DNA from: a virus
Length of the DNA: 64,000 nt
Virus record (IMG/VR): IMGVR_UViG_3300017917_001839
Coordinates: 32,001 to 96,000 of that record
Reading direction: 5' to 3' (one strand)
A model generated the notes under the pieces. It was not told the origin of the DNA, did not search any database, and saw only the letters and a program-made list of their open reading frames with translations. The position numbers and the translations under genes are program-made. Below, one piece after another: positions 11,280 to 62,195 of this stretch; positions within the stretch are counted from its first letter, which is position 1; every line of letters starts with the position of its first letter.

Positions 11280-12007
11280 AGTCTATCCCTTATATATTCA
11301 ATCAATTCTGCATTGGCCAGTGGGCCTAAATGATTAGGGTGTTCATCACCTACAGGACGGCGCCACCAGGTATGGTCCGGCAGATCGCCTTTGTAATACT
11401 TTGCACACATGCCACTTAAGTAAAACTCTGTGCATAAATGCCCCGTTTCAGGAGCATGGAATTTGTACACACGCGACTGTATGTGTTCTGGCACTTGTTG
11501 AGCAAACTCAGTATCAAAACAATAAAAATGGAACAATTTACTTTTAACATCTTTTAACAAATTGTCAACAGCATTCACGCTCATATTGTATGCATTAAAA
11601 CGTTCATAGTCATTGTATATGTGCATGAAAAACAACTTAGATGCTTCGTGCATTTTAGATTCGTTAATAGGATCGTAATCTGTATAGTGTCGCAATGGCT
11701 TGCCTAGCCCGTCCTTGGATCTTGCATACTGACTCCAAGTGATTATTACTAAATCAGTTTCTGTTAATTTATTGCGAGACAAGAAGTTTGACAATTGCCA
11801 AAACACATCAGACGGGCCAGTGCCCGGGCTGCCCACATGCATAACAGGTGCATCAAGCTGATCAGACAACTCATCTATCCAGCTAATATTAGAACCCCAG
11901 TGCTTGTTGGTCCACGCTTGATAGGCGGTGTCACCAGCATAGTAATTTCTTGAATCTGCTACAAAGCTATCGCCAAAGCACAGTATTCTTTTAATTGTTG
12001 CGCCCAT
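11276..12007 (-). CDS. SGNH/GDSL-like hydrolase or acyltransferase
   Basis: FGDSF, GSPGTG, C-terminal HPNHLG. Confidence 0.6.
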   Translation of the reverse strand: MGATIKRILCFGDSFVADSRNYYAGDTAYQAWTNKHWGSNISWIDELSDQLDAPVMHVGSPGTGPSDVFWQLSNFLSRNKLTETDLVIITWSQYARSKDGLGKPLRHYTDYDPINESKMHEASKLFFMHIYNDYERFNAYNMSVNAVDNLLKDVKSKLFHFYCFDTEFAQQVPEHIQSRVYKFHAPETGHLCTEFYLSGMCAKYYKGDLPDHTWWRRPVGDEHPNHLGPLANAELIEYIRDRL

Positions 12008-13295
12008 ACATCAATTCCCAAAGCTCAGGTATAGCACTGCTCATGCTTTCATTACGCTGTCGGTCCAACATCTGTGTATATTTTTTAAATATGGCCAGTT
12101 GCTGTTCCCAATCCTCATGTCGGTTTTCTTTTAGTGCGCGAATTAATGCGTTAATTGCTTGTAGGTTGCTTTCGCGCTTTACAAGAATCTTACTGGTAGG
12201 AATCCATGCTTCTAATCGTTCCACTGCTACACTACGTACACTATCTGGCAGGTTACGGAAGTCTAGACTGCGCGGATAATCACAGATTAAGAAAGTTAGG
12301 TGTATTTCTCGATTATACTCTTGTTCTAGGCTTTCGCAATAGTCCAATAATTTTGTAATATCTAGAATATTGTATATTTGAATTACAGGACTAAACAACA
12401 AGCTACCAACTACTTTACTAGCACAGTAGCGACGAACGTTTTCATCTGTTTGCGTCCAGTGGCTAGCACCGCGAATATATTCATTTAATTCGCCATAAGC
12501 ATCTACGCTAAAGCACATTAACACTTTCTTAAATTGTTCAACTAGATTAATAAAGCGTGGCTTAATGTTGGTCATGTTGCTGTTAAACACCAATTCAATG
12601 TTTTGTGCAATACCCAATTCCACACACTTTTCTAAGATCCAGTATGTGCGTTCAATTAGTGTAGGTTCGCCGCCGGTAAAGTATAGCTTGTTAACACCGG
12701 GTAACCACTCTTCTACTTGACGTAGGAAGTCTGGATCATCCTGCCATGGAGTAATATGATCAGCAAACTGACCCCAAGTAAAGTGATCCTTAATAAACTG
12801 TGCAGCCATAGGATCGTTTTCTTCTATGCGCTTGTATTCCTTTTGAATCTGACTACTGTTTTGTGGTTGGCACATACGACACTTTAGGTTACATAAATTA
12901 CCCAAGCGGAAGTCCAAATACATAGGTGCTTCTTCTACTACATAGTCGTTGTCAATGCTACGCTCAATGCGTTGCATGATACTTTCGCCATGACCACTAT
13001 ACTCAAACCAGTCGCGTATATAGTTAGTGCGATAGCTAGGGAAGCCCATCTTTTCTAAATCGTAGCAGTGTTCACAGCCTTTTACTGTTTCGCCCTCAAT
13101 CATCTGTTTGCGTATCTTACGCATGTGATTGTTGTTCCACACAGTTTCAATCTTATCTCCGCGATTAAGATCAAACATAGTACCGTCATCGTTTTTAAAA
13201 TTGTCGCGAGCAACACAGCACCAACTAACTGTGCCGGTGGGCTGGGTCATTACGTGTATCCACGGATACGGACAAAAGGTTTTACTGTATTCCAT
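11991..13295 (-). CDS. Radical SAM enzyme with N-terminal twitch/SPASM-like domain (1 of 9)
   Basis: CPYPW..WCC..CEHC; CNLKCRMC; GGEP. Confidence 0.9.
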   Translation of the reverse strand: MEYSKTFCPYPWIHVMTQPTGTVSWCCVARDNFKNDDGTMFDLNRGDKIETVWNNNHMRKIRKQMIEGETVKGCEHCYDLEKMGFPSYRTNYIRDWFEYSGHGESIMQRIERSIDNDYVVEEAPMYLDFRLGNLCNLKCRMCQPQNSSQIQKEYKRIEENDPMAAQFIKDHFTWGQFADHITPWQDDPDFLRQVEEWLPGVNKLYFTGGEPTLIERTYWILEKCVELGIAQNIELVFNSNMTNIKPRFINLVEQFKKVLMCFSVDAYGELNEYIRGASHWTQTDENVRRYCASKVVGSLLFSPVIQIYNILDITKLLDYCESLEQEYNREIHLTFLICDYPRSLDFRNLPDSVRSVAVERLEAWIPTSKILVKRESNLQAINALIRALKENRHEDWEQQLAIFKKYTQMLDRQRNESMSSAIPELWELMYGRNN

Positions 13296-14436
13296 CCCAA
13301 TCTCTCTTAATTAATTCATATAATTCCGGAAATGTTTCCGGTAGTTGTTCGCGTCTATGCTGATCTATACGACGAGTAATAGTTAAAAAGTTCTGCCAAT
13401 CTTCTACTGTATAGTGTTCACCATTCATGAAGTTAAGCGTCTTTTGTACGTATTCAGGCGCATTGTGATACTTTATACTTATGCGTTCCTTGATACGTTT
13501 AGGCAATACTTTAGGCGATATATGGCTGGGTGTAAACACCATGTTATAGTGTATGCGTATACCCGGCAAGTGTTCAGCGCAATAATCAGTAAGCTCGGTC
13601 ATTGTAGCAATATTGAATATGCTGAACGTTTGAAATATACCTAATTCAAAAGTCTCCGGTGGCAACTGTGCAAATAATTTCAAATTATTCACTACAGCAT
13701 CAAAGTCCCCAGGGTAACGTATATAGTGAAAACGCTCGCCTACGTCATCTAAGCTAAAGAATATCTCTACCTTTTTAAACTGCTTCCACAGTTCAATTCT
13801 ATGTTCAGGATAAATGCTGCCGTTGGTATTGTAACTAACAGTAATGTCTTTGCTACGCCCTAGCTCTACTGCACGAGTTAATATATCGTAGTGACGTTCT
13901 ATTAGCAGCGGTTCTCCACCATAGAACTCTAACTTCTCTACTGTGTTTAAATATTGATCAATATCTGTCCAAAACTGTTCGTTGCGTTCGGGCCAACGAC
14001 CCAAATGATTAAACATCAATGCTGTCTTATTATTTGGATTAAGTTTAATCTCTTCTGCGGCCCACTGACTGCTGGCAAAGCTACTGCATATTCTGCACTT
14101 GCTGTTGCAGATGTTACCCAGCTTTAGATCCATACTTTTTATACTGGGTTCTGTATGTGTACCCCAGTACGCTAGTTCACGTAGACGTTTGCTCTGTATG
14201 CCGGCTGCTTCTTCGCGCCAGCAGTTATTACATGCACTGGGCTGTTTATTATCTAAAAAGTCTTGCTGTAGATTAGCCAGCCACTCGCTGTTGCGCACAT
14301 CTGTAAACGTATCGCCCTGCGCTAGATTAAAACTACTGCCATCACTTTTACGTGCGTGATCCTGCATAATACAGCATACGCTCATTGTGCCGTCTGTGCG
14401 AGCTTCAAGGTTAATAAATGGCAGCGGGCAACTCAT
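13282..14436 (-). CDS. Radical SAM enzyme with N-terminal twitch domain (2 of 9)
   Basis: CPLPF..VCC..CNNC; CNSKCRIC; GGEP. Confidence 0.9.
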   Translation of the reverse strand: MSCPLPFINLEARTDGTMSVCCIMQDHARKSDGSSFNLAQGDTFTDVRNSEWLANLQQDFLDNKQPSACNNCWREEAAGIQSKRLRELAYWGTHTEPSIKSMDLKLGNICNSKCRICSSFASSQWAAEEIKLNPNNKTALMFNHLGRWPERNEQFWTDIDQYLNTVEKLEFYGGEPLLIERHYDILTRAVELGRSKDITVSYNTNGSIYPEHRIELWKQFKKVEIFFSLDDVGERFHYIRYPGDFDAVVNNLKLFAQLPPETFELGIFQTFSIFNIATMTELTDYCAEHLPGIRIHYNMVFTPSHISPKVLPKRIKERISIKYHNAPEYVQKTLNFMNGEHYTVEDWQNFLTITRRIDQHRREQLPETFPELYELIKRDWDGIQ

Positions 14437-15647
14437 AGATTGGCCAACTCCGGAAATACACTTGCAAAGTCTTCACTGCGCAATTGATCAAACTCTGTGT
14501 TAAAACGTTTAAACTCATCAAACAAGTGTGTATGATCATCATCTAAGAACTTGATAGCACTCTTATAACCTTCTGTAGCGCGACCAATATGATCCTGCGG
14601 TTCTAGCCAACGTAGATGCTTTTCCCACTTATACTTAATTTGTTCTTTAAAGTCCTGTGGCAGGATGCTCATGCGGAAACGTGGATTGTTTAACAGTACG
14701 TTTACATACCAGTCGCCGGCACGTATATAACCTTTTTCTACCCAGCTGCGATGGAAGTCCGGCAAGTGCCACGCATTATATGCACTAACAGTAGAACTAA
14801 CATAGAAATCAATCTCCGGTGCGCGGCTGCGCAATTCTTTGATATTAGCTACTACATCGTTCCAGTCTGTGCCTTTACGCTGATATTCACCACGTGCGCC
14901 TTCTGCGTCTAGGCTAGCACCTACACTGATATGCTTAAAGTTTTTCCATAAATCAATTACACTGTGTTGCTTGTAGCGTAATTTAGTGAAATTAGTATTG
15001 TAGAATATACGAATATCTGTTTTACCCAACTCCACGAGACGATTCATGATGTGCCAATGTTCGTCCATGATAATAGGTTCGCCGCCTGCCCAGTATATCT
15101 GTTCAATGTGCGGCAGCATAGTTTCAAATTCTTCCATAAAGCCCGCAACGTCTTTACGAATTTGGATTACACTCTCTGTAGGTGTTTGGTTAAAGCTACT
15201 CTTTACAGCGTCATGGAACCAGTTACTGCTTAGTTCGGGACCACAGTAACGGCAGCGTAGGTTACATACGTTACTAAAGCGGAAGTCTAAGTATACAATG
15301 TGCAGATCATCTAAGCTACCATCAGGGTTAGTTTTTGCAACCTTATCCCAATGTGGCTCTAGCCAGTCTCTGTTACTGCGAACACGTAAGCTGTCGTGGC
15401 CGTACTTTTCTTTTTCATAACAGCGAACACATTCTTTGCAGTGTTTGCCTTCCAACATGTTAAGACGAACTTTACGCATAGCAGGACTATTCCATACTTC
15501 GCGTAAGCTGTTTTCACGCAAGTCGCCTATGTTGGTTTCCCATGGACTGTCACAGCACAGCATGGTTTTGCCATTGGGCCAAGGGTGCATGTGAATCCAA
15601 GGAAGGATACACATGGTCTTGCTGTCTTTGTGGTCTTCAAAATTCAT
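14433..15647 (-). CDS. Radical SAM enzyme with N-terminal twitch domain (3 of 9)
   Basis: CILPW..LCC..CVRC; CNLRCRYC; GGEP; start is 15647 or 15659. Confidence 0.9.
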   Translation of the reverse strand: MNFEDHKDSKTMCILPWIHMHPWPNGKTMLCCDSPWETNIGDLRENSLREVWNSPAMRKVRLNMLEGKHCKECVRCYEKEKYGHDSLRVRSNRDWLEPHWDKVAKTNPDGSLDDLHIVYLDFRFSNVCNLRCRYCGPELSSNWFHDAVKSSFNQTPTESVIQIRKDVAGFMEEFETMLPHIEQIYWAGGEPIIMDEHWHIMNRLVELGKTDIRIFYNTNFTKLRYKQHSVIDLWKNFKHISVGASLDAEGARGEYQRKGTDWNDVVANIKELRSRAPEIDFYVSSTVSAYNAWHLPDFHRSWVEKGYIRAGDWYVNVLLNNPRFRMSILPQDFKEQIKYKWEKHLRWLEPQDHIGRATEGYKSAIKFLDDDHTHLFDEFKRFNTEFDQLRSEDFASVFPELANL

Positions 15648-16881
15648 GCTGTATCCCATGCTTGTTTAACAGCTCTACTAATTCTGGAAATACCGTTCTC
15701 CAGCCCATAGCAGGCAAATGCTGGCGCTGTTTATCTAATTGATCGTTATAGCGGCAAAACTGTGCCCACTTAGCTGGATCCCAGTCACTGTTATCATACA
15801 TGCTGATCACTGTACTAATGTGCTGACTGTTACCGTGTTTGCCGGCTCTATATCGGTTTAATATTTCCTGTCGCACTGGTGGAGGTAGCACACTGGGACT
15901 TAAGAAGTCTGGGTCATAAACAAAGTTCATGTCCACAGGTACTGGTGCCCAGTCTAGGAATTCATCTAAATAAGCAAAATTAAATGCACTAACAGTCTGT
16001 GTAATACGTACAGTTAGATCAGTTTGCATTAGTGCATTTAGATTGGTCTTAACGTCAGCCCAATAAGTAGGATAACGTATATAGTGATTGCGTAGACTTA
16101 GATCGTCGATGCTGGGGCATACGCGAGTTTCTTTAAATTCGCTCCACAGCGGAATAGCCTGCTCGGGTAAGTTGGTCATATTAATATTATACCATAACAC
16201 AATGTTCTTGCTACGACCGCTTTCTACTAGTTTGCGTAGGTACTTCCAGTGTGCTTTGATCAGCGTAGGTTCGCCACCGTTAATATATAACACTTCCATA
16301 TTGGGCGCACAGTTATACAAGTCCTCGTAGAAACTTTCATCCTCGGGCCACTGGAAGTCATGCTTGTGATCTAGCCAACTGTATCCATCGTTAACAAACT
16401 CTAGCGTTTCCACCAATTCTTTATAGTCGCGGCGCCATTGGCTACTACTTGCAGGATTGCAAGTACGACACCGTACATTGCAAACATTACCAAGCCGAAG
16501 CTCAACAAAGCGCAAATCAAGAGGAATCCCCCCGTTAGCGTCAGTACTGCTCCTAGCCCAAGAAAGGCCTCTGTGAGGGTATTGTTCGATCTCGTGTAAA
16601 CGTTTGCTGCGTAATCCTTTATCTTCTTCATCATAACACCTCATACATGCTGCGGGTTTCTCTCCGTCTAGCATTTGTTGTCTAATTTCTTTAAAATAAT
16701 CACTGTTCATATGAGTGTTGATGTTGTGATCATTTAGGTTAAAAAACTCGTCGCGATCCGTGCCATAGTTTCTGGCACGATTCTTTCCTGCTGTGTGATC
16801 GCTGATACAGCAAGGTGTGACACCACCGTGAGGGTGTGTGCCTAAGTGTATCCACGGTAAAGGGCAATAGGTTTTACTCAT
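15637..16881 (-). CDS. Radical SAM enzyme with N-terminal twitch domain (4 of 9)
   Basis: CPLPW..PCC..CMRC; CNVRCRTC; GGEP. Confidence 0.9.
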   Translation of the reverse strand: MSKTYCPLPWIHLGTHPHGGVTPCCISDHTAGKNRARNYGTDRDEFFNLNDHNINTHMNSDYFKEIRQQMLDGEKPAACMRCYDEEDKGLRSKRLHEIEQYPHRGLSWARSSTDANGGIPLDLRFVELRLGNVCNVRCRTCNPASSSQWRRDYKELVETLEFVNDGYSWLDHKHDFQWPEDESFYEDLYNCAPNMEVLYINGGEPTLIKAHWKYLRKLVESGRSKNIVLWYNINMTNLPEQAIPLWSEFKETRVCPSIDDLSLRNHYIRYPTYWADVKTNLNALMQTDLTVRITQTVSAFNFAYLDEFLDWAPVPVDMNFVYDPDFLSPSVLPPPVRQEILNRYRAGKHGNSQHISTVISMYDNSDWDPAKWAQFCRYNDQLDKQRQHLPAMGWRTVFPELVELLNKHGIQHEF

Positions 16882-18206
16882 ATTACTTTCCCTGGTTCTA
16901 GTGCGCCATAGCGCGGATTTAATTTAGCAATATTATGCTCATGTGGATAGTTCATTTTTTTGTTCTTTAGTAATATTGTATATAATTCAGGAAAACATTC
17001 ACGGAAGTTTTCTTTTCTATAAACGTCTCCGGCAATCACTTGTTCAACAAACATGCGCCAACGTACAGCAATTTCGCTTTCTACAGTGTCTGTGGGCAGG
17101 TCGCCGTAGGGCTTAACTGTTTCTTTGCGCGGTGTTAACACAAACTTTACAATACCATCTATGTCACGCTGTATATATTCGTGTGCATAGGTAGCTTCTA
17201 CCAGTGGCTTAACAATATCCGGCTTGCACTCTTCTGGAAATACGTTAGGGTTATACCAGCTGGGATAGAAAGCTGTGTTATGGAATATTCTAAATTCGGG
17301 CCAACGCTCTGCAAATATTTGATGAAACTCTGCTAGGTACATTACATTAAGTGCTGTTACTGTACAAGTAATACCCACGTGCGCTTTCTTATTAACATGC
17401 AATTCATGATAATAATCTAAATTATCACGCACTTCATTCCAGTCTGCACCGTGACGTAGATACTCAAAACGCTTCTTTACTGCGCTGTCTATGCTTACAT
17501 TAAAGCCCACACTGGCAAAGTTCTTTAACATTTTATTCATAAATGTTTTATTCAGTGTAGTGCCGTTGGTGCTGAAGTTTATGTGTACGTTCTCGCTGAT
17601 GCCATCTGCTACTAGTTTATCCACAAATTCACGAAACTCTTTCATGTACAGTGGCTCACCACCCATTACTTCAAGGTAACGTATGTGTGGCAACCAGTCG
17701 TTGATCTCGGTCCAGAAGCGACTGTTTTGCATGTCGTCTAGACTTATATTAACACTTTCTTTAACATAGGGCAAGCCTCTTTCTTCAGCTTCTTTTACCC
17801 ACTTACTGCTATATCCAGGATTGCAACTGCGGCACTTTAGGTTACAGGTAGTGCTGAGAATTAATTGGAAATCCTCTGGCATGTCTGGTTCTTTATCCCA
17901 ATCTATAGGACCATAGCGCCATTCTGCATACTCGTTATATATTTCACGTTTGCTCTTTTTACCGTTGCGCTCGTCTTGCCAGCAAGGTTCACAGTTAGCT
18001 GGTAGTTCGCCCAACCTAATAGCGTTGCGAATATTCTTATAATAGTTGCTGTGAAATATATCACGTACACTGGTCTCACCTAGTGTATAAGGCTTACCAT
18101 TTTCGTCATGTACCCGCTCACGTGCGATGCAACAGGTGCGCACATGCCCCAACGGCTCGTTGCTGATATGCTTCCATAATAGACTGCAATACTTAGGTGC
18201 TGACAT
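16878..18206 (-). CDS. Radical SAM enzyme with N-terminal twitch domain (5 of 9)
   Basis: CSLLW..TCC..CEPC; CNLKCRSC; GGEP. Confidence 0.9.
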   Translation of the reverse strand: MSAPKYCSLLWKHISNEPLGHVRTCCIARERVHDENGKPYTLGETSVRDIFHSNYYKNIRNAIRLGELPANCEPCWQDERNGKKSKREIYNEYAEWRYGPIDWDKEPDMPEDFQLILSTTCNLKCRSCNPGYSSKWVKEAEERGLPYVKESVNISLDDMQNSRFWTEINDWLPHIRYLEVMGGEPLYMKEFREFVDKLVADGISENVHINFSTNGTTLNKTFMNKMLKNFASVGFNVSIDSAVKKRFEYLRHGADWNEVRDNLDYYHELHVNKKAHVGITCTVTALNVMYLAEFHQIFAERWPEFRIFHNTAFYPSWYNPNVFPEECKPDIVKPLVEATYAHEYIQRDIDGIVKFVLTPRKETVKPYGDLPTDTVESEIAVRWRMFVEQVIAGDVYRKENFRECFPELYTILLKNKKMNYPHEHNIAKLNPRYGALEPGKVI

Positions 18207-19320
18207 TGGTTTTGCCTTTGTTATATATTGTATATGCTAATGCGTAATTGTGTTCTAGCACTTCTTGCACTTCGGGGCTGTTGACTTTTTCACTTAATTC
18301 GCTGTAGGGTAAATCTAAATAATATTCAATTTGTTTTAAAATATGATCGCATCTATCATAAAAGTTTTCAATGCTGTCATAGCTTTCATCAAATAATATT
18401 CCATCAAATGTACGGAATCCGCATTCTTTTAAACGCTGTAAACTATGTGGCATACCTAATCTAATAAATGGACGCTTTAATAAAATACATTTAAATAGCT
18501 TTTCTGATAGCACATCTTCTTGCCACCAACTTTGTTCTGATTTAAATTCTAAATACTGCTGGTAATCAATGTTTTCATGTTCTACGTAATCAACTGTAAA
18601 ATCAAATAGCCCACGCAATAGATTCTTATTAAATAATTCCGGGTCACCATTTAACCATGCATTACTGTGATCCTGTGTAGCTGATTCCAGCTTTCCAGGT
18701 AATTCTTTAACTCTGTGCTTGTTATCCCGGAACCATGGATCTGCATCACTTACATTAGCATATAAGAATGTACCCAGTACATTGCTTTGTCTGCTGGTTC
18801 CGTGAACATTATCCAGATACCACTTGACCACATGATTCTTTTGAAACCTAGGACGACCAATAAACAGAGTCATATGCTTGTCGGGATGCACATCAAATAT
18901 TTTACTGTATCCGCTGTCAATGGATCGCGATGCCCAATAGCAAGTGTCATGACTGATCTTCATACGCTTGGATACATTGTTTAGGCTGCACCAAGCATTG
19001 TATGATTTCTTAGCATAGATATTGCCTGATAAAAATTCAATGTTCTCTACTGGATAATCAAATTTATCACACACAGCATGTATTAAACTGAACCAATTGT
19101 TATCCGGATCAGCAAATGTTTGATCTAAGAATAACATTGGTTCAGTAATATAGCTCACTGTGATATGTTTGTTGCTGGCTTTTTTAGAGCTTAGAACTAT
19201 GCGTTCTAAAACTTTTTTAATGCCAACAGGACGTCCACCTGTAACTTTAATATAATAAGAAGCTAGAGCTAAATCCCTAACTTCTATTTTTGGTTTTACA
19301 AGTGTCTCCGTTGCAAACAT
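18193..19320 (-). CDS. Putative glycosyltransferase (GT10/fucosyltransferase-like C-terminus), 375 aa
   Basis: SEKLFK..RPFI..G..L..GFRTF..ESYD resembles the EK motif of the GT10 nucleotide-sugar-binding region; weak assignment. Confidence 0.45.
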   Translation of the reverse strand: MFATETLVKPKIEVRDLALASYYIKVTGGRPVGIKKVLERIVLSSKKASNKHITVSYITEPMLFLDQTFADPDNNWFSLIHAVCDKFDYPVENIEFLSGNIYAKKSYNAWCSLNNVSKRMKISHDTCYWASRSIDSGYSKIFDVHPDKHMTLFIGRPRFQKNHVVKWYLDNVHGTSRQSNVLGTFLYANVSDADPWFRDNKHRVKELPGKLESATQDHSNAWLNGDPELFNKNLLRGLFDFTVDYVEHENIDYQQYLEFKSEQSWWQEDVLSEKLFKCILLKRPFIRLGMPHSLQRLKECGFRTFDGILFDESYDSIENFYDRCDHILKQIEYYLDLPYSELSEKVNSPEVQEVLEHNYALAYTIYNKGKTNVST

Positions 19321-20604
19321 TTATCTAGTATTACCATAGTGTACTACACGCACACCTTCTAGATTAGGTGTCTTACGCCACGGGTCAACAACTACACTGC
19401 CCTGTGCAAATGACAATGCTGTACCATTTGCTGTGGCCACTGTTAGTGCTTCGTCAGCACCTGTAACACGATGGTCTTTGTACCAACCTGCAACAAAGTC
19501 TAACTGTTCACCGTAAGTGATTTGTGGGTTGTGTGCTAATAGATATACTGCTGGCTTAGACATCACATCAGCTGGCGGCATTTCGCCAATTACTTCATCT
19601 AAGTAATATAGTTGTGCGCCCATTTCAGCTACGTAGTGTCCTACCAGCATGCTGCTTGAACCTGCTTCATAAGGTACCAGTGGCTTGTAGGCTTTACCCA
19701 CAATAATCACGGGCTTGCCCTCAGACAGATCAACCAGCTTACGAGCCATGTTCTTTGCTTGTACTTCTCGCGAGTACATTACAGCATCAAACAAGTCATA
19801 GCCCAAGTCTAGTCGCTCAGCTAGGTAACGTAGTGCAATGTTATCGCGTGGATGACATGCACCGCCATCGCCCATACCAGGCTTCATATAACCAGGACCC
19901 ATAATGCGTCTGTCGCTGGCTGCTAGTGCATCGCAAACTACTTCAGCATTAACATGACCTAGCTTTTCAGCTACGTCCTGAATCATGTTTACTAGACTTA
20001 CTTTAGCACTGATGAATGTATTGTAGAATACTTTGATACACTCAGTTTCTTCCCAAGTACCAACAATGTAACGTGGGCTGTTCTGCATAATGGTCTTGTA
20101 GAAGTCTACAAGTTCTTTTGCATCACCAGTTTCGCTGCCATCTTCTGTACCAATCATAACCATTTCTGGGTTAACCATGTCCCACTTTACAGTACCCATC
20201 GCAATCAAGTATGGATTGTAAATGAAACGTGCATTAGTTATTAATGGTTGTAATTGGCTACGCACTGTGCCAGGTAGCACAGTTGAGATTAGAACAATTA
20301 ACTGAGATGGTGTTGCAACCGCATTTACTTCACGCAGAACATTCTTAACCACAGTGTAGTCGAAGTCCTTGTTGGGTAAATGGCTGGTTGGCGCCTTGCC
20401 ATCATATTGTGGATCATGTGGTGTTTCTACTGCGATAAACACAATATCTCTACCACGTACTGCTTCTGCGAGTGTGGGAACCATTTTAAAGTTCTCAGGC
20501 TCACGTGGAGCAATGTCGTATCCAACAACATCATGGACCTCAGCTACCATCTCGGCGCAGGCTTGTCCTAGCTTGCCCACTCCGATAAATCCGATCGAGG
20601 CCAT
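19321..20604 (-). CDS. UDP-glucose/GDP-mannose 6-dehydrogenase family
   Basis: GxGxxG (GVGKLG), STVLPGT, KVFYN, catalytic GGACHPRD; RBS AGGAG. Confidence 0.92.
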   Translation of the reverse strand: MASIGFIGVGKLGQACAEMVAEVHDVVGYDIAPREPENFKMVPTLAEAVRGRDIVFIAVETPHDPQYDGKAPTSHLPNKDFDYTVVKNVLREVNAVATPSQLIVLISTVLPGTVRSQLQPLITNARFIYNPYLIAMGTVKWDMVNPEMVMIGTEDGSETGDAKELVDFYKTIMQNSPRYIVGTWEETECIKVFYNTFISAKVSLVNMIQDVAEKLGHVNAEVVCDALAASDRRIMGPGYMKPGMGDGGACHPRDNIALRYLAERLDLGYDLFDAVMYSREVQAKNMARKLVDLSEGKPVIIVGKAYKPLVPYEAGSSSMLVGHYVAEMGAQLYYLDEVIGEMPPADVMSKPAVYLLAHNPQITYGEQLDFVAGWYKDHRVTGADEALTVATANGTALSFAQGSVVVDPWRKTPNLEGVRVVHYGNTR

Positions 20605-20647
20605 TTGTTTCTCCTAATTTTTTAAGTACAGTTTTAACTGTACGCAA

Positions 20648-20655
20648 TATTTATC
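20648..20655 (-). promoter_or_regulatory. Putative T4-type late promoter GATAAATA
   Basis: Intergenic, upstream of the dehydrogenase; the same element recurs before structural genes. Confidence 0.6.
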
Positions 20656-20672
20656 AGGGGATTTTACAGTAC

Positions 20673-21407: not shown

Positions 21408-22074
21408 ACTTTAACCTATTGTAAATTACGTATTCGGGTTTTAGGTGATCTACAATTTCATTGTAGCACAGTAGGCTGGGCAATACTTCTTTGGCAAAGC
21501 GGCGATTTAAGTTACTCACTGATATGCCCAATCGAACTACGTAGTCCATGTCGGATGTTTTGTTATATGTTGTTACATTCTCATATCCGGCGCTGGCTAA
21601 GAAGTTATTTAAATCTTCCATCAACACATATTGAACTTTGGTATCGCCTAGGCGATCAAATACTGACAACCAATTACCGCAGTGTGCAGTATAGCCCATG
21701 GTAGCATGCCCCCAGTTTGGATTAGATCCGCCCTGTGTTTCAAAGTATATCTCTGTGGCACGTTTCCAGAAATCATTGCTTTGCGCAAGACTTTCCAGTT
21801 TAGTATTATTAATAAGAAAGAAGTCTGTATACAATTTTAGTGTGCGCTTGATTTCTTCTAATAACCCACTAGCATATCTATCCATGGGATCGCGTAAAAT
21901 ACCTACTACAGTTTTATCGCTGTGCTGTGCAATTAGTTTGGGTAACTCTTTATCTGTAGCAAATAATTCATTGCCTACACCAGCTAATTCAATCAGCGTG
22001 GATGACGCATTTTTATTAACTGTAATTATTAGATATTTACCCAAAGGTATACAAATTACTCTGATATCATCCAT
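21382..22074 (-). CDS. Sulfotransferase-like protein
   Basis: KNASST and RDPMDRYASG; apparent paralog of the neighbour. Confidence 0.6.
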   Translation of the reverse strand: MDDIRVICIPLGKYLIITVNKNASSTLIELAGVGNELFATDKELPKLIAQHSDKTVVGILRDPMDRYASGLLEEIKRTLKLYTDFFLINNTKLESLAQSNDFWKRATEIYFETQGGSNPNWGHATMGYTAHCGNWLSVFDRLGDTKVQYVLMEDLNNFLASAGYENVTTYNKTSDMDYVVRLGISVSNLNRRFAKEVLPSLLCYNEIVDHLKPEYVIYNRLKYASRQRRS

Positions 22075-23164: not shown

Positions 23165-24569
23165 GTTGATTGTGCTTGGGATCTAGTCTCATCCACCATT
23201 CGTGTAATTCTGGGTCTGCACTATAGATATGTTCAATACGTGTGCTGCCTTCTCCACTGCGAATATCAGCAATCTTATCCTGCCAGTTGCGACCTTTGAA
23301 GAAGCTGGCTTCAGCTACATCTGGCCACTGTTCTTGGAACGTGGGTGTTACTAGCATATTCTCTAATTCACGAATTAATGTTTGTTGTTTGTGTGTGGCA
23401 CGTGGGCGAATATATTCTAAATTATCGTTGATAATTCTATTTAAAATATGACGTGGCCAAGCCATAGGACTAAACACAATGTCTGGATGGAATGCAAACA
23501 TACGCTTGGTTTCAATCTTAACATCTAACTCTAGTGCATAGTCAAAGAAGTTCTTAAGGTCAAACATGCCCGGGCCTGTTAGCGTTAAGTCCATTAGCAT
23601 ACGATCCTTGCCGCCGGGTAATGCTACACCTTCACGGAAGTTGCGATCCCACTGATCCCATTTAAGACCTGTGCGAATAAACTCTCCAATTTTACCTGTG
23701 CCATCAATACTAGCGCACATAGTCCAGTCTTTGGCTTGTGGTAGCCAATCGTATAAGTAATGTTCGCCAAAACGCACACGACTTAGGTTACTGTTATAAC
23801 GTAGGTGTACTTTGCGTAAATTGTTATCCTGTGCTAATCTATCCATAGCACGCCAGTGGATATCATACATCAGTGGCTCACCGCCTACCCAATATATTTC
23901 CTCTACTACACCGCTACAGATAGCAGCCCAGAACTCTTCTTCTACAACTTCTTTTTGGAATCGCTCAATGATAGCCTTATTCTCCGGGACCATAAAGGGT
24001 TGGTTTTCTGGGCTCCAGAGTCCGTGCTTGCGCTTTTCGCTTTCCCAGCTTGAGCTGAGTGGTTCTCCGCACATTCTACATTTAAAGTTGCATAGATTAC
24101 TGACCCTATAGTCAAAGCTAATAGGAGGCATAGCAGTATAACCATCATCATCGGTCTCCTCAAAGGCTTGTTCAATTTTATCTTTAAACAAGAACCCTGT
24201 AAACCACTGGCGGTATGTACTTTGACTTAAAATACTGTCATTGCATACTGCACACTGTGGAATAGTTTCTCCAGCCATCAGCTTCTTGCGAATGTCCTTC
24301 ATATAAGGACTGTTCCAATGTTCTGCTAGGCTAACTGGCTTATAGTCATCAATGGTGCCTACTTCTTTGTACTTGCCTGTGCTTTTATCGTTGCTGGCAT
24401 CAATATACTGACGCTGCATCATATGTTCTTCGCGGCTAGCACAACACATTCTGCGTTCGCTTTGTGGACTAATATAGGTGTGCGTCCAGGGTGCCATGCA
24501 GAATGTTTTGTTAGGCGATTCCGGGCTCATTTGTCCGTGTTCCCAAATTGGTTTAATTCTCTGTGTCAT
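23157..24569 (-). CDS. Radical SAM enzyme with N-terminal twitch domain (7 of 9)
   Basis: CMAPW..MCC..CAVC; CNFKCRMC; GGEP. Confidence 0.9.
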   Translation of the reverse strand: MTQRIKPIWEHGQMSPESPNKTFCMAPWTHTYISPQSERRMCCASREEHMMQRQYIDASNDKSTGKYKEVGTIDDYKPVSLAEHWNSPYMKDIRKKLMAGETIPQCAVCNDSILSQSTYRQWFTGFLFKDKIEQAFEETDDDGYTAMPPISFDYRVSNLCNFKCRMCGEPLSSSWESEKRKHGLWSPENQPFMVPENKAIIERFQKEVVEEEFWAAICSGVVEEIYWVGGEPLMYDIHWRAMDRLAQDNNLRKVHLRYNSNLSRVRFGEHYLYDWLPQAKDWTMCASIDGTGKIGEFIRTGLKWDQWDRNFREGVALPGGKDRMLMDLTLTGPGMFDLKNFFDYALELDVKIETKRMFAFHPDIVFSPMAWPRHILNRIINDNLEYIRPRATHKQQTLIRELENMLVTPTFQEQWPDVAEASFFKGRNWQDKIADIRSGEGSTRIEHIYSADPELHEWWMRLDPKHNQHG

Positions 24570-24787
24570 AATTTGTATATATCTATTACACCATAGTGGT
24601 CCATCATTGCCACTGTTATTTTATGTCGTTTAATTACTGCAAATACCAAATCAATCATTACGTGGCTATTACCGCAGATAATCTTTAATGGTAGCAGGTC
24701 TTGATTCATAAAGATAAAGTTTTCTACTAAACGATCTACTTCATGATGTCTTACACCGTGTAGGTCCAGCGTTGTGTTTTTACCCAT
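24566..24787 (-). CDS. Stand-alone Smr-domain-like protein, 73 aa
   Basis: TLDLHG and IICGNS motifs. Confidence 0.6.
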   Translation of the reverse strand: MGKNTTLDLHGVRHHEVDRLVENFIFMNQDLLPLKIICGNSHVMIDLVFAVIKRHKITVAMMDHYGVIDIYKL

Positions 24788-25517
24788 TTGCTACCTCTAA
24801 TATTTCTAAATTTTTAAAGTAATCGTAGAACTGCTCAGGTGTTAGTATTGCAGGATTATCGCTGTCCTCATCGCCTAAGTATTTTTCAATAAAGTCAACA
24901 CCTTTATATGCTACTGCTACACTAGGAAATACTCCAGCATCTCTGCTTTCGTATCCAACTGTATATTTTTGTTTTTGTAAATTATCAATAGTAGATAGTG
25001 CCAGATCTTCTGTGCTGGGAGGAAATGCATCTGTGGTATAGTATACAGTTACTTTAGCTTTGTTTGCGTATAGCACATCTACTTCTTCTAAATGACGATG
25101 ACTATAAATTACTTCTGGGAAGTTGTCTTTACAGTAACGTGTAAGTTCGTAGATATTAAATGCACCATAATGCAGTTTTACTGTTTTAGCATCACAGTGT
25201 TCTTTAACAAACTCTGCGGATTGGCTGTCGGTGATGCTCCAAATAATAGGAATACCTATACGTTTTGCAAGCGATGTAATATGTTCAGCTGATTCAGCAT
25301 CTAGCTCACTGCGCTTGGCAACTTCTAGATAAGGTAAATGTCCCCAACGGCTAGGAATAGATACGTACTTCTTTTCGTGGGGTATAAGCAAACTAGGCGT
25401 GCTTTTAGTAATTACAACCGCGTCAGCATTACACTGCGCGGCTGCAATCAATCGTGCTTCTAGAACACTAACTTTATTTTCGTGTCCTATGCCTATGTTA
25501 GCATATAATTTAGCCAT
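24780..25517 (-). CDS. NeuB/N-acetylneuraminate synthase-like TIM-barrel protein, degenerate active site
   Basis: NIGIGH, ADAV, GYES, IEKY, ILTP map onto NeuB blocks EIGxNH, ADAVK, GYSDH, IEKH. Confidence 0.65.
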   Translation of the reverse strand: MAKLYANIGIGHENKVSVLEARLIAAAQCNADAVVITKSTPSLLIPHEKKYVSIPSRWGHLPYLEVAKRSELDAESAEHITSLAKRIGIPIIWSITDSQSAEFVKEHCDAKTVKLHYGAFNIYELTRYCKDNFPEVIYSHRHLEEVDVLYANKAKVTVYYTTDAFPPSTEDLALSTIDNLQKQKYTVGYESRDAGVFPSVAVAYKGVDFIEKYLGDEDSDNPAILTPEQFYDYFKNLEILEVANG

Positions 25518-27186
25518 TGCCCTCTACGCCGCCAAGACCATCCGTCTCAGTATCCCAACCAATGCTGCTACCGCCAATCTTCTTTAGCAGTTCAGCACGA
25601 GCTTCTGGGTCTAGCGGATTATCATACCAATCGGCGCTTTCTCCTGTCTTGCGTTCACGTAAACGTACTTCTTCTACAATCACTTCGCCATCTTCACTAA
25701 CTGTGCGATGTGCATATACACCACCATTCTTAGCAATAGTCTTAGGCTGTTGAATATCCTGTTCTTTCTTTTCCAGCGGGAATACTTTGATGCTGTCGTA
25801 AAACTCTACAAAGTTAGGGAAAGTCTTACGGAAGTCTTTGCCGCGACGTGCGTCATACTGCTCGTAGAATACCTTAAAGTCATGCTCTAGTAGCTCACGG
25901 TCCGCAGTATTACGGTGTGGAGTCTTAACAACGTCTAGGTATTCAATTAGACGACTTACCTGATCCTGTTCCCATGGCTGTACAAGCTGTAGTCCATTTG
26001 CGTCGCGCTCGTCGCGCTCACGTACTTCCTTGAGCCAGTTATAGATCTGGTCGTGATACTTTTTACGTAGCTCGTCGGGTAGTGTTAGTGGACTTTGGAA
26101 GCTAGGGAAGCGTAGAATGTTGCAGGTAAAGCCTGGACGATTGTGTCCATACTTGCGCTTCATTTCCAACATCCAATTAAAGAAGTCTACAATAGTATCC
26201 AAGCATAGCGCATTAATAGTCATCATCATGTGCAAGCCTTCAATACGTGCTTCGCTACAAATACGCTCAAAGTTATGTGTCCACTCATCCCACTTTAGTC
26301 CGTCGCGAATATATTCTGCTTGTGGGCCATATGCTTCGCAACTGGTGTACAAGTGGAAACGTGGAATGTGCTGTGTACCATTAATTAGTTTGTCAATAAG
26401 TTCTTTCTTAGAACCTAAGTTACTGTTAATAGCAAGACGCATCTTCTCTGCTTGTGGTGTACCGGCATTTTCCTTGAACCAATCAAACAACTTGTAGATG
26501 TCTGGAGTCATTGTGGGCTCACCACCAGTGACACGAATCTCTTCTAGCTCTTGGCTAAGTGTAGGCCACCAACGCCAAAACGCATCTACATATGGATTGA
26601 ACTCATCGCGATCAAATGGCTCAGCATAAGGAGCATCATCAATAAAGTGTCCACGTGCGTCACTGCGGATATTATGATAGCCGCCGTTGTTGCGGATATC
26701 CTTTACCCATGTAGTACTGAATGCAGGGTTACAGTAGCTACATGCAAACTGACAGGTACGGTTGAACGAAATTTCTAGAGTCTTAAGATTAACATCTGCG
26801 TCTGGATTTAGTTTAGCAATCTTCATCAAGTCCTCATCTTCATAGATAACAGTCTTGTATGTACGATCACTTACAGGCTCGTTGCCGTCAGCATCTTTGC
26901 CCATGTCCTCAATCTTCCAGCAGTATTCACATTCTTTAGGACGCTTGCCTTCCTGCATCATCTGACGCATTTTCTTTTTGTGCTTGGTGTTGTGAATAGC
27001 ACTGGGATTTTCTTTGATTTCTTCTAAATCAATTTGGTGTGCGGGAGGGTGATGGCAACTAGTAGTACCGCCATGCCCTAGCCAAATAGTAGCATTAAGC
27101 CACTTAGCCGCACAGAATGATTCGCTGACGCTGTCAATCATTCTCTTCTTAAACTCTCTGTGGCTTTCGCCCTGCTTACGTCCCAT
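25510..27186 (-). CDS. Radical SAM enzyme with N-terminal twitch-like domain, CHH subtype (8 of 9)
   Basis: CAAKW..SCHHP..CEYC; CQFACSYC; GGEP. Confidence 0.9.
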   Translation of the reverse strand: MGRKQGESHREFKKRMIDSVSESFCAAKWLNATIWLGHGGTTSCHHPPAHQIDLEEIKENPSAIHNTKHKKKMRQMMQEGKRPKECEYCWKIEDMGKDADGNEPVSDRTYKTVIYEDEDLMKIAKLNPDADVNLKTLEISFNRTCQFACSYCNPAFSTTWVKDIRNNGGYHNIRSDARGHFIDDAPYAEPFDRDEFNPYVDAFWRWWPTLSQELEEIRVTGGEPTMTPDIYKLFDWFKENAGTPQAEKMRLAINSNLGSKKELIDKLINGTQHIPRFHLYTSCEAYGPQAEYIRDGLKWDEWTHNFERICSEARIEGLHMMMTINALCLDTIVDFFNWMLEMKRKYGHNRPGFTCNILRFPSFQSPLTLPDELRKKYHDQIYNWLKEVRERDERDANGLQLVQPWEQDQVSRLIEYLDVVKTPHRNTADRELLEHDFKVFYEQYDARRGKDFRKTFPNFVEFYDSIKVFPLEKKEQDIQQPKTIAKNGGVYAHRTVSEDGEVIVEEVRLRERKTGESADWYDNPLDPEARAELLKKIGGSSIGWDTETDGLGGVEGNG

Positions 27187-27196
27187 TGTGTGTCCT

Positions 27197-28732
27197 CTAG
27201 ATCATTGCATGTGCTTCTTGGCAAATCTGCCACCAGTCATCCATTTCTGGAAACACTGATAAAAAGTCTGTGCCTCTACGCTCATCGTGTTGCGTAAAGA
27301 ACTTGTAAAAATTTGCTCGCGCTTTTAATACTTCTTCTTCACTTAACTTACTGCCCGCTTTCATCCATTCTAGATTACGACGAGCTTTATCAATTTCAAA
27401 ATCCTTAAAGCCTCTATAGTCGATGTACTGCTCGTTGGCAGCATTAAGTTCCATAAAAGCAATTGCTTCTTCTAAATAGTCCTGGTACCATTCTGGCATT
27501 ACTTGTATGCACTGCCAGTGTGGCGCTCGCAATAACGGAATGTCAAACCAAATACGTTGCTTAGGACGTATTTCATAGTCTGGGTGTTTGTGTCCACCAT
27601 TATCCGGTACTGGTATATATTTAATGCCTTGGCGATCTTTAGCAAACTCTTCGCGGAGCTCTAAAATAAACTGTAACCATTCACGGAAGCTGGTTAAGCT
27701 AAGTGCATTAAATGTATTAATAAATGTTATAGTAGTGTTGTCTGTTTCACGTAGAATACGTAACACATTCTTCTTTAGTACTTCAAAGTCCATGCCATTG
27801 CGCATATACTCTGCTTGCTTACCATAACCATCACAGCTAACGAACACAGCAAAGTTCTTACAAGCTGGTGCTACATACCAGTTGTTCCCACTGTTTGGAT
27901 TAAACTTTTGTGGGTCCTCCCAAATTTGAATCTGTTCTAGTCTCTGTAGCGATTCAATAAACCGGTCCATTAGCTGTGGCTTCGGTGGACACATATTTGA
28001 TGTAACACTCATTTCTAGCCATGCGTTAGGATTTGCATAAACATAGTCTAGTACTTTAAAAGTGTTAATGTCCATAAGTGGCTCGCCGCCAGTCATACGG
28101 AACACTTCTAGGTTCTTGTACAGCTCGGGCCACCACTTCCAAAATGCTTCTACATAAGGATTTTCATCCTGTGCCACACGCAAAGGCATTAGGCCTGCGC
28201 GAGCCAAACTTTCTGTGTTGTTGTGTTCCCCACCTACAATCTGGTAAGGACCAAAATCTTTTACTTCTTGGTGCCAGCTTGTGCTTAGGTGAGGACTGCA
28301 ATAACTGCATTTAAAGTTACAGGCTTGATTGAAGTTAACTTCTACATAACGAGGGTTAATGTTACCCTGCCATCCGGCTGCTTTAATATCTTCCTTAGCG
28401 TTTTGTGCCCAGTATTCACCACTGCGGTAAACACGGTCGCTGCGACCGCCTACATCCTCGATGCGCCAGCAATAGCTACAACCAGCTGGGCGTTTACCTT
28501 CCAACATCTCTCTGCGCTGTTCTTTTTTCTCAGACGTATTGTGTAGTGCGCTAGGATTGGCTTTTAGTTCTTCTAGGTCAATTTTATGTGTTGGTGGATG
28601 ATAGCAACTGTGCGTCATACCGTTAGTAAGATGCATAGATACCTGCGCCCACTTTGCATAACACATAGTTGGGCTAATAACATCTAGCTCTTGCTGTGCC
28701 GCATCTGCGGCTTGTTCGTATATGCTAGTCAT
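27197..28732 (-). CDS. Radical SAM enzyme with N-terminal twitch-like domain, CYH subtype (9 of 9)
   Basis: CYAKW..SCYHP..CSYC; CNFKCSYC; GGEP. Confidence 0.9.
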   Translation of the reverse strand: MTSIYEQAADAAQQELDVISPTMCYAKWAQVSMHLTNGMTHSCYHPPTHKIDLEELKANPSALHNTSEKKEQRREMLEGKRPAGCSYCWRIEDVGGRSDRVYRSGEYWAQNAKEDIKAAGWQGNINPRYVEVNFNQACNFKCSYCSPHLSTSWHQEVKDFGPYQIVGGEHNNTESLARAGLMPLRVAQDENPYVEAFWKWWPELYKNLEVFRMTGGEPLMDINTFKVLDYVYANPNAWLEMSVTSNMCPPKPQLMDRFIESLQRLEQIQIWEDPQKFNPNSGNNWYVAPACKNFAVFVSCDGYGKQAEYMRNGMDFEVLKKNVLRILRETDNTTITFINTFNALSLTSFREWLQFILELREEFAKDRQGIKYIPVPDNGGHKHPDYEIRPKQRIWFDIPLLRAPHWQCIQVMPEWYQDYLEEAIAFMELNAANEQYIDYRGFKDFEIDKARRNLEWMKAGSKLSEEEVLKARANFYKFFTQHDERRGTDFLSVFPEMDDWWQICQEAHAMI

Positions 28733-58014: not shown

Positions 58015-58025
58015 TCTTACAATCC

Positions 58026-62189: not shown

Positions 62190-62195
62190 TGTTGA

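Follow-up and report, generated by a model that had tools for sequence, protein, structure and literature searches.

Why would a phage carry nine related radical enzymes side by side, and what could they act on? This question is raised by a 64,000-nt stretch of viral DNA (hereafter the window), which comprises bases 32001-96000 of the 122,294-base IMG/VR virus record IMGVR_UViG_3300017917_001839, a contig with a CheckV completeness of 35%. The window contains nine paralogous genes for radical S-adenosylmethionine (SAM) enzymes, which we named c1 to c9 by position; all are intact minus-strand open reading frames (ORFs) encoding proteins of 365-558 aa. Twitch-cluster radical SAM enzymes carry out some of the hardest known sugar chemistry, usually with one or two enzymes per pathway. 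Here, a single conserved operon of a phage holds eight or nine members of an uncharacterised family with permuted domains. That the proteins belong to a named yet apparently uncharacterised family was already known. What is new is the finding of eight conserved lineages and one accessory copy in a fixed order and under strong purifying selection, of pairs defined by natural fusions, and of a tie to glycosyltransferases in an operon adjacent to fibre genes. A search of the full-text literature, which does not cover most subscription journals, turned up no characterisation of N-terminal-twitch enzymes as a family and no description of an array of radical SAM genes in a phage, with the exception of a gene count in Nishimura et al. 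2017 (PMC5332604).

Nine radical SAM enzymes with an N-terminal twitch domain

All nine proteins are members of the NCBIfam family NF033640 ('twitch domain-containing radical SAM protein', N_Twi_rSAM). They scored above the curated cut-off of 170 bits (172.3-407.9 bits) over nearly the whole of the 398-position profile, and a search of the entire 122-kb contig recovered exactly nine members above this cut-off, namely c1 to c9. Pfam Radical_SAM was found in each copy at E≤0.01, six of them over the gathering score. In seven copies it was preceded by an N-terminal match to Pfam SPASM (PF13186; residues ~3-110; six over the gathering score), whereas c8 and c9 gave no Pfam SPASM match. Pairwise identity among the copies is 17-35% (mean 24%), and c1 to c5 form an unbroken five-gene array with overlaps of 4-23 nt. 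The likeness to NF033640 thus covers domain order, Cys motifs and full-profile scores. No reaction is assigned to that family; what distinguishes the phage operon is that it combines eight or nine sub-lineages of two deep subtypes (CC vs SC(H/Y)HP).

The CxxxCxxC and GGEP motifs are invariant in an alignment of the nine copies. The remaining invariant columns are the first N-terminal Cys, the second Cys of a 'CC' pair and the first Cys of a CxxC motif. A script check found C-x18-C followed by CxxC ahead of the core in every copy, with Cx3C as the c6 variant. The second Cys position lies within 'CC' in c1 to c7 and within 'SC(H/Y)HP' in c8 and c9. Each copy has four or five conserved Cys residues in its N-terminal region and none conserved elsewhere; no conserved Cys follows the CxxxCxxC motif in any of the nine, and c3 has no Cys at all in that part. 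These counts indicate one auxiliary cluster, as in a twitch domain, rather than the two auxiliary clusters and seven or eight Cys residues of a full SPASM domain. The auxiliary domain is N-terminal to the core in all nine copies, unlike the canonical SPASM/twitch arrangement of anSME, BtrN and MoaA. A preliminary description of the sequence had recorded these motifs, the unbroken five-gene array and the two motif types, all of which proved correct on re-checking, and membership in NF033640 likewise bore out its statement that the proteins belong to a recognised family of unassigned reaction.

It had also been suggested that His may replace a Cys ligand in c8 and c9, and this was not supported. 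In an alignment of 100 subtype-2 sequences, C24, C85 and C88 are invariant and C43 of SC(H/Y)HP is kept in at least 90%. Subtype 2 lacks the first Cys of the 'CC' pair, i.e., the fifth Cys of subtype 1. Since c8 and c9 keep four Cys residues, there is no need for a His ligand. H49 and H64, each kept in at least 90% of the 100 sequences, may have another role.

When a profile of the nine N-terminal domains was compared with all PDB sequences, the sole significant match was the C-terminal twitch domain of BtrN (E = 0.0043); the full-length profile also found BtrN. This butirosin 2-deoxy-scyllo-inosamine dehydrogenase, the archetypal twitch enzyme, shares with the phage copies the twitch match and one four-Cys auxiliary cluster, with the same C-x18-C spacing of the ligands. 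In BtrN, however, the twitch domain follows the core in a protein of ~250 aa with no C-terminal helical domain, and similarity to the phage copies outside the twitch domain is not significant. AlphaFold2 (AF2) models were obtained from alignments of 100 and 60 sequences for c9 (pLDDT 92.7, pTM 0.91) and c3 (pLDDT 94.0, pTM 0.89). In both, the chain passes from the first Cys through a beta-hairpin to the second Cys, continues with two helices and CxxC at the start of the next helix, and then forms the core and a helical C-terminal domain. The C-terminal 70-150 aa of the copies are helical and contain no conserved Cys. Taking alignments and models together, the N-terminal domain would be of the twitch type with four Cys residues available for a putative second [4Fe-4S] cluster, and the nine proteins are predicted to be catalytically equipped two-cluster radical SAM enzymes.

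Structure searches aligned the core only (residues ~104-460 of c9 and 121-380 of c3), and the AF2 models matched radical SAM cores at Z 11-13.6. Top neighbours of the phage core included BlsE, a cytosylglucuronate decarboxylase (Z 12.4 with c9, ranking second; Z 13.5 with c3, ranking first, with a root-mean-square deviation of 3.7 over 217 aligned residues), viperin (11.7 with c9, 12.6 with c3) and DesII (11.4 and 11.2). SkfB (13.6 and 12.7), anSME (10.6 and 12.7), and SuiB and MoaA (each ~12 with both models) were in the same group. Such a tied group of neighbours places the core with the SPASM/twitch clade, but the fold names no reaction. A Foldseek search of the PDB gave only weak global matches (query-normalised TM 0.26-0.32). 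In BFVD, the c3 model matched over its full length ~20 proteins of uncultured tailed phages (query-normalised TM 0.7-0.93); a 'MoaA/nifB/pqqE family protein' from Vibrio phage KVP40 was a more distant match.

Models of characterised enzymes scored far below their cut-offs. The phage copies reached 17 vs 400 bits with the BlsE hidden Markov model, 16.4-36.5 bits in eight of nine copies with the viperin model NF038283 (cut-off 180 bits), and at most 44.9 bits with the MoaA model TIGR02666 (cut-off 284 bits). With the anSME/AslB model TIGR03942 (cut-off 349 bits), c3 scored 18.8 and c6 26.7 bits, and the other copies gave no match at E≤0.01. The label 'AslB', under which database sources list homologues, is therefore an over-annotation, and the present assignment corrects 'AslB / sulfatase maturase' on thousands of metagenomic proteins. 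MoaA differs further in having a three-Cys auxiliary cluster with an open iron site, whereas four Cys residues are available in the phage copies. The SPASM peptide maturases (anSME, SkfB, CteB and SuiB) resemble the phage copies in core fold (Z 12-13.6) and in the N-terminal Pfam SPASM match of seven of them. In contrast to the phage copies, which would have one N-terminal auxiliary cluster and are accompanied by neither a RiPP recognition element (RRE) nor a precursor peptide, these maturases have two auxiliary clusters.

Lineages, conservation and natural fusions of the copies

A tree of 107 rows was built from the nine copies, their orthologues in two relatives and members of the family found at 45 GTDB loci; a quick method was used, and its support values need caution. 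Each window copy fell into a supported clade of its own with phage orthologues and genome-bin homologues, and not with its neighbours in the array. This grouping with distant homologues argues that the array is an assembly of old, distinct lineages rather than the product of a recent burst of duplication. The split between subtype 1 (c1-c5 and c7) and subtype 2 (c8 and c9) had 99% SH-aLRT support. The two subtypes of the preliminary description are thus separate in the tree, except that c6, which it had counted with subtype 1, forms a long branch (1.89) of uncertain placement.

The array is conserved among relatives. Five related viral contigs each carry eight family members in one array, one of these contigs having a ninth elsewhere, and orthologues of c1-c5 and c7-c9 occur in the same order in all five (identities in Table 1). 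By the Nei-Gojobori method, dN/dS was 0.018-0.072 in the 12 of 40 orthologue pairs with defined dS; in the other 28, synonymous sites were saturated and dN was 0.12-0.51. The low dN/dS values exclude relaxed selection. By these comparisons, the nine copies are best described as at least eight old lineages kept in a fixed order under purifying selection, and the earlier view of them as divergent but intact is borne out by their open frames, their complete set of cofactor motifs and the selection on them. That the copies are decaying or functionless duplicates is effectively refuted. We found no support for this idea beyond a c6 score barely over the family cut-off (172.3 vs 170 bits), and against it stand nine open frames with cofactor motifs, the dN/dS values and the 18 orthologous protein clusters of c6 elsewhere, in which (at 46-84% identity) every motif is invariant.

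No c6 orthologue was found in the five close relatives. In addition, four of four sequencing runs left positions 20935-22611 uncovered, and contigs from two of these runs join 20665 to 23309 and 20911 to 23146. Together, these findings identify c6 and the two adjoining genes as an accessory cassette (20665-23309).

The family itself is widespread. More than 6800 of 8000 candidates scored were homologues of c3 at E≤1e-10, and c9 matched 4338 representative clusters at E≤1e-3, with 420 of them reaching E≤1e-30. Among 50,697 deposited phage records, c3 was matched only by Ralstonia phage RsoM2USA and Vibrio phages K566 and K567, and c9 only by RsoM2USA. At least three annotated radical SAM genes lie next to one another in Vibrio phage K566; around the RsoM2USA and K566 homologues, all neighbouring genes are annotated 'hypothetical'. 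The GTDB loci come from a scan with a single peptide pattern taken from the subtype-2 alignment and are a biased sample. Among the matches listed, 30 of the 45 loci were from Bdellovibrionota bins by record title, with one to eight copies per 20-kb locus of these predatory bacteria, and several of the others were phage-like contigs inside bins. Some Bdellovibrionota members (within loci L033-L074) lie on 0.9-Mb contigs, often as pairs of a c8-type and a c9-type gene with extra radical SAM genes and without sugar genes in the vicinity. In a gammaproteobacterial bin, a 2.58-Mb contig (L040) has a c9-type gene beside genes related to those of the phage for the carbamoyltransferase (50% identity) and for the DUF6071 protein (34%); an integrase-core gene is near. 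A cellular genome thus also has the phage trio of c9-type, carbamoyltransferase and DUF6071 genes.

Which copies might act together can be judged from natural fusions. We found 78 c3 homologues longer than 714 aa, 52 of which carry two family domains. CxxxCxxC is present twice in all 52, an exact GGEP twice in 44, and the twitch Cys pattern in both halves of 48. By best match, 40 of the 52 are c3+c2, 8 are c3+c1, 3 are c3+c3 and 1 is c4+c3; since c3 was the query, only the partner type is informative. The order of c3-type then c2-type in the fusions is that of the genes in the window, where c3 and c2 overlap by 4 nt, and c3 and c2 are also adjacent in the distant contigs L070 and L071. Similarly, P0122 is a fusion of c9-type then c8-type, again in window order. 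Two further proteins join a c9-type enzyme to a transferase-like domain. In P0184 this is a GT2/Glyco_transf_7C domain (5.3e-10), and in P0139 the first 216 aa share 31% identity with the 29301-30299 protein; identity to the 1358-aa protein of the operon is 44%, in the C-terminal domain of the latter. These fusions, the sole basis for pairing, indicate that some copies would work as pairs: c3 with c2, c9 with c8, and c9-type enzymes with a glycosyltransferase-like domain. They also give enzymologists defined pairs (c3+c2, c9+c8, GT+c9) and a candidate substrate pool.

An alternative is that the copies are parallel isozymes that catalyse the same reaction on different, host-dependent substrates, such as envelope polysaccharides or a small-molecule defence signal, and so serve as a host-range toolkit. 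The occurrence of the family in Bdellovibrionota (30 of 45 loci among the matches listed), whose targets, as with phages, are Gram-negative cells, fits this idea, as do the faster evolution of c2 and c5 than of the other copies and the location of c6 in a swappable cassette. However, eight copies are in fixed order in five of five relatives with no copy-number variation among the eight, and the fusions join unlike paralogue types in a fixed order, which is what one would expect of steps that follow each other or cooperate. We consider a set of parallel isozymes improbable.

The operon and the possible substrates of the enzymes

The copies are part of a tightly packed minus-strand operon that extends from ~33.7 kb down to 4.7 kb of the window, directly downstream of baseplate and fibre genes (Table 1).

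Table 1. Positions and assignments of the nine copies (c1 to c9), of other genes of the operon and of the structural genes upstream
Feature	Position	Strand	Length and evidence	Five close relatives
c1	11991-13295	-	434 aa; subtype 1; NF033640 362.8 bits; N-terminal Cys 8, 26/27, 74, 77; CNLKCRMC at 135; GGEP at 208	75-95% identity
c2	13282-14436	-	384 aa; subtype 1; NF033640 330.3 bits; partner type of c3 in natural fusions	46-53% identity
c3	14433-15659	-	408 aa; subtype 1; NF033640 407.9 bits	75-91% identity
c4	15637-16881	-	414 aa; subtype 1; NF033640 360.7 bits	70-85% identity
c5	16878-18206	-	442 aa; subtype 1; NF033640 299.5 bits	57-63% identity
c6	22067-23164	-	365 aa; divergent, Cx3C; NF033640 172.3 bits; in accessory cassette	
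c7	23157-24569	-	470 aa; subtype 1; NF033640 303.2 bits	80-91% identity
c8	25510-27186	-	558 aa; subtype 2, CAAKW...SCHHP...CEYC; NF033640 318.9 bits	76-94% identity
c9	27197-28732	-	511 aa; subtype 2, CYAKW...SCYHP...CSYC; NF033640 321.4 bits	81-97% identity
Protein with several 29301-type (GT2-like) domains	4715..8791	-	1358 aa; last large operon gene; 27% identity to 29301 protein, E 3e-14; four regions match P0139 N-domain	
Carbamoyltransferase (NodU/CmcH type)	8793..10334	-	Pfam Carbam_trans_C 7.7e-55, Carbam_trans_N 4.9e-42	in 4/5 loci
DUF6071 protein	10653..11279	-	Pfam DUF6071 3.6e-08; recurs beside family members in cellular loci	
375-aa protein	18193..19320	-	C-terminal domain family interleaved with radical SAM genes in L034, L070, L053 and L066 (BLAST)	
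UDP-glucose/GDP-mannose dehydrogenase-family enzyme	19321..20604	-	Pfam UDPG_MGDP_dh 6.5e-18, N domain 2.5e-14	5/5, 77-93% identity
Two genes of the cassette	20673-21407 and 21382-22074	-	244 and 230 aa; no family match; form cassette with c6	missing
73-aa ORF	24566-24787	-	LDLHG motif; weak Smr-domain match, E 0.006; between c7 and NeuB-like gene	2/5
NeuB-family (sialic/nonulosonic acid synthase-like) enzyme	24780..25517	-	245 aa; Pfam NeuB 4.9e-15	5/5
GT2-like glycosyltransferase candidate	29301..30299	-	own viral clusters auto-named 'Glycosyltransferase 2-like' (Atlas); invariant DGD	29301-type genes in 5/5
GT8-family glycosyltransferase (glycogenin-like)	30961..31824	-	Atlas GT8 lead 0.96; LDTD in sequence	
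Class II aldolase/adducin-family enzyme	31821..32441	-	Pfam Aldolase_II 7.7e-29	
Second GT8-like paralogue	32422..33330	-	cross-matches 30961 family; in profile A8; LDVD in sequence	
Upstream structural module	35131..62579	-	fibre-like 611-aa protein, 228-aa protein, 6778-aa virion protein, gp6-like and gp25-like baseplate wedge; PHROGs phrog_10646 baseplate wedge (E 0), phrog_261/43, tail-fibre-like C-terminus	
Single ORF within the module	37678-58014	-	6778 aa; Thr/Gly/Val/Asn-rich; 0.3% Cys; no internal BLAST repeats	

The glycosyltransferase (GT) assignments differ in strength. As single sequences the two GT8-like proteins had no Pfam match, but a profile of their family (A8) matched glycogenin-1 and glycogenin-2 at E 1.4e-08 to 1.7e-06 over profile positions 1-123 in 19 distinct chains, which identifies them as GT8 enzymes. 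The L034 orthologue of the 29301 protein gave a weak Glycos_transf_2 match (E 0.009). Homologues of the 1358-aa protein, ~1000-1280 aa long, lie downstream of the array in related loci. The family of the 375-aa protein has a conserved C-terminal block (consensus ...EK..KP....PFI..G..G.L..L..LGF.TF....DESYD...) and no Pfam or PDB match, and profile searches found no family for the products of 20673-21407, 21382-22074, 28729-29304 and 30315-30971. By motif resemblances that no tool supported, the 20673 and 21382 products may be sulfotransferase-like and the 18193 family GT10-like. The order GT8-like, GT8-like, 29301-type, c9-type is repeated in the distant phage-like contigs L034, L044, L070 and L071, three of which (L034, L070 and L071) also encode a homologue of the fibre-like 611-aa protein. 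Neighbours were tallied with Pfam in 16 loci chosen from the 45 GTDB loci; the tally covered 117 genes that lie within 3.5 kb and encode 130 aa or more. Radical_SAM was the most frequent assignment (6), followed by GT7 (4) and by carbamoyltransferase, DUF6071, DegT and flagellin (2 each).

The reading that we favour, with a probability that we would place a little short of even, is that paired radical enzymes tailor the sugars of a phage-made glycan and that the operon is a glycan-building and glycan-tailoring island. In this mechanism the [4Fe-4S] cluster of CxxxCxxC together with GGEP would bind SAM and cleave it to a 5'-deoxyadenosyl radical. Each enzyme might then abstract an H atom from a different sugar or sugar position, the substrate being a nucleotide sugar or the glycan as it grows. 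The auxiliary cluster, with Cys as all of its ligands, could serve as an electron relay, in a manner like BtrN oxidation, NeoN epimerisation or BlsE decarboxylation of a uronic acid. Synthesis, linkage and capping of the sugars would fall to the GT8 and GT2-like transferases, the carbamoyltransferase and the enzymes of the dehydrogenase, NeuB and aldolase families, and the UDP-sugar dehydrogenase-family enzyme could supply the uronic acid. The most speculative element is the destination, which would be the virion fibre protein encoded next door. The proposal of the preliminary description that the copies cooperate in one pathway gains support from the operon context and, most strongly, from the fusions of paralogue pairs in window order.

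Giant viruses encode sugar pathways for their fibrils, and radical SAM tailoring is not known to be described for virus-encoded virion glycan pathways. The operon resembles such pathways (mycobacteriophage capsid/tail, giant-virus fibril) in having glycosyltransferases and sugar-nucleotide enzymes beside structural genes. Glycosylation of the mycobacteriophage capsid and tail is cited in a paper on a 'moraphage' (PMC12619734).

Several observations weigh against sugar tailoring as the function of the array. The substrate cannot be read from sequence, and the virion-fibre destination is based on gene neighbourhood alone. The GT2-like call for the 29301 family is weak, consisting of an Atlas name and a sub-cut-off Pfam match (E 0.009) with no PDB match. 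GT7-type neighbours occurred in only 2 of the 16 cellular loci sampled, and in four Bdellovibrionota loci on long contigs the eight neighbours examined were radical SAM and housekeeping genes (GcvT, PPDK, Lnb_N), with no sugar gene among them. Among the structural neighbours of the core, which tie to within 1 Z unit, are the peptide maturases SkfB, anSME, CteB and SuiB alongside sugar and nucleotide enzymes. Finally, 21 of the 78 long c3 homologues contain TPR repeats, and P0135, one relative, has a Peptidase_S8-like (subtilase-like) N-domain; such fusions hint at protein substrates.

The last three points suit an alternative in which the nine enzymes modify proteins post-translationally, whether the phage fibre, the giant virion protein or host proteins, by epimerisation, cross-linking or anSME-type oxidation of Ser or Cys, while the sugar enzymes constitute a separate or parallel decoration pathway. 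The position of the array immediately downstream of structural genes is also in keeping with protein modification, as are the two glycogenin-like GT8 enzymes, since glycogenin-type GT8 enzymes act on proteins. On the other side, twitch enzymes mostly act on small molecules, and one auxiliary cluster is found here rather than the two of most peptide-modifying SPASM enzymes. The anSME and RiPP-maturase models (RiPP, ribosomally synthesised and post-translationally modified peptide) scored far below their cut-offs. No RRE-type Pfam or NCBIfam leader-binding domain is present in the nine proteins, and the operon contains no conserved precursor-like small ORF, peptidase or exporter. On balance, we regard protein modification as unlikely. 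The earlier suggestion that small peptides of the cluster are the substrates found no backing in the conserved ORFs; the 73-aa ORF is weakly Smr-like and present in two of five close relatives. We also considered the 6778-aa protein as a substrate for thioether-type chemistry and rejected it because of its low Cys content (0.3%) and lack of internal repeats.

A second sugar/cofactor cluster lies outside the window (G000:C1:14287-20318; L001/L002). It encodes a weak GT1-like protein, an NAD-dependent epimerase/dehydratase (1.7e-52), a 388-aa radical SAM protein, GTP cyclohydrolase I (2.9e-62) and a 295-aa radical SAM-like protein. By its gene content this cluster is compatible with a 7-deazaguanine route, and its two radical SAM-superfamily genes together with the nine bring the number on the contig to 11.

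GTP cyclohydrolase I and the two further radical SAM-superfamily genes could also be taken to favour a role of the island in hypermodifying phage DNA, in which glycosyltransferases would tag modified bases with sugars and radical SAM enzymes would tailor these sugars or the bases, producing an anti-restriction coat. Carbamoyl-transfer and NeuB-type chemistry are, however, typical of surface glycans. The array runs in the same direction as the baseplate and fibre genes and adjoins these rather than replication genes, and neither the 122-kb contig nor a 250-kb relative yielded a hydroxymethylase of the thymidylate-synthase family; both are incomplete, so that this point is weak. Hypermodification of DNA by the island appears about as improbable as a set of parallel isozymes, and the rest of the probability goes to functions outside the readings discussed here. 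That glycosyltransferases of phages hypermodify DNA with a variety of glycans is a statement cited in PMC12619734; the available text of that paper makes no mention of radical SAM, and a link to the present phage lineage is not shown there.

Returning to the glycan reading, a bolder version of it would hold that the N-terminal-twitch enzymes are an unrecognised carbohydrate-tailoring class made up of obligate pairs (c3-c2 and c9-c8) coupled to glycosyltransferases. Eight or nine such enzymes with four or five transferases would then build a heavily radical-modified glycan on tail-fibre or giant virion proteins, and the sets in Bdellovibrionota would represent a shared 'attack-surface' glycan chemistry. 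This version is doubtful. If the glycan reading is true in either form, tailed phages would invest ~18 Fe-S clusters per enzyme set in a surface glycan, and the finding would bear on phage-host recognition, on viral demand for iron and sulfur in aquatic systems and on new radical carbohydrate reactions.

The phage, its iron-sulfur supply and other features of the contig

The contig represents part of the genome of a tailed jumbo phage from aquatic habitats. Its gene products include a family-B DNA polymerase, an SbcC-like nuclease, a portal protein, a lysozyme-bearing baseplate hub, and wedge proteins of the baseplate that are gp6-like and gp25-like. For the portal, identity is 55-57% with Pseudomonas PA5oct-like jumbo phages and ~50% with Atu_ph07 and SCTP-2; over its first 1000 aa, the 6778-aa ORF shares 29% identity with a 'virion structural protein' found in PA5oct-like phages. 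The phage genes and the portal match confirm the viral origin assigned to this DNA. All sampled words were present in only one sequencing run, from a pond metagenome, which was flagged as possibly being the source; metagenomes of freshwater, aquatic, marine and wastewater origin (13 studies) shared part of them. Contigs from four runs aligned to the region at 85-99%, two runs labelled 'RNA-Seq' were flagged as probably DNA, and protein homologues also came from Tara and other marine sources.

Radical SAM enzymes function in the cytoplasm of aerobes. A low-oxygen niche, which the preliminary description had considered possible for an array of this kind, is not borne out by the occurrence of near-identical or related DNA in pond, freshwater, marine and wastewater runs, which come from oxic habitats. 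Neither is full reliance on the Fe-S assembly of the host. A gene for an A-type Fe-S carrier is present in the 250-kb relative (PF01521, 28.2 bits vs a cut-off of 26.3; G001:C1:242146-242448, L030), although none was found in the 35%-complete contig of the window itself, and the genome described in PMC5332604 pairs such a carrier with 12 radical SAM genes. Genes for FeS_assembly_P, flavodoxin and thymidylate-synthase-family proteins were not found in the contigs examined, whose incompleteness means that this is no proof of absence. The 250-kb relative also has the ninth, shorter family member (G001:C1:236671-237582, L030; 211.8 bits), ~5 kb from the carrier gene.

According to the available text of Nishimura et al. 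(PMC5332604), the 12 radical SAM genes occur in a 183-kb T4-like marine viral genome together with an Fe-S A-type carrier, Cas4, glutaredoxin and PaaD, and the proposal made there is that viral Fe-S assembly genes serve viral Fe-S proteins. That genome and the present phage are alike in being large tailed phages with about a dozen radical SAM-superfamily genes (9 + 2 in the present contig) and an A-type carrier (here in the relative). As far as the available text goes, the genes were counted and linked to Fe-S supply in that work, whereas family, order, selection, fusions and glycan context are given only here.

The T4-type late promoter word TATAAATA had 0 matches on both strands of the window, compared with 6.0 expected from shuffled sequences. 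The phage probably uses another late-promoter signal. Sigma-70-like sites were found 41 times in the window, compared with 50.2 expected, and did not yield a promoter model. Outside the window, the contig also encodes a phage Bax1-I / BAX-inhibitor-1 family membrane protein (G000:C1:13433-14110, L001; Pfam 3e-49).

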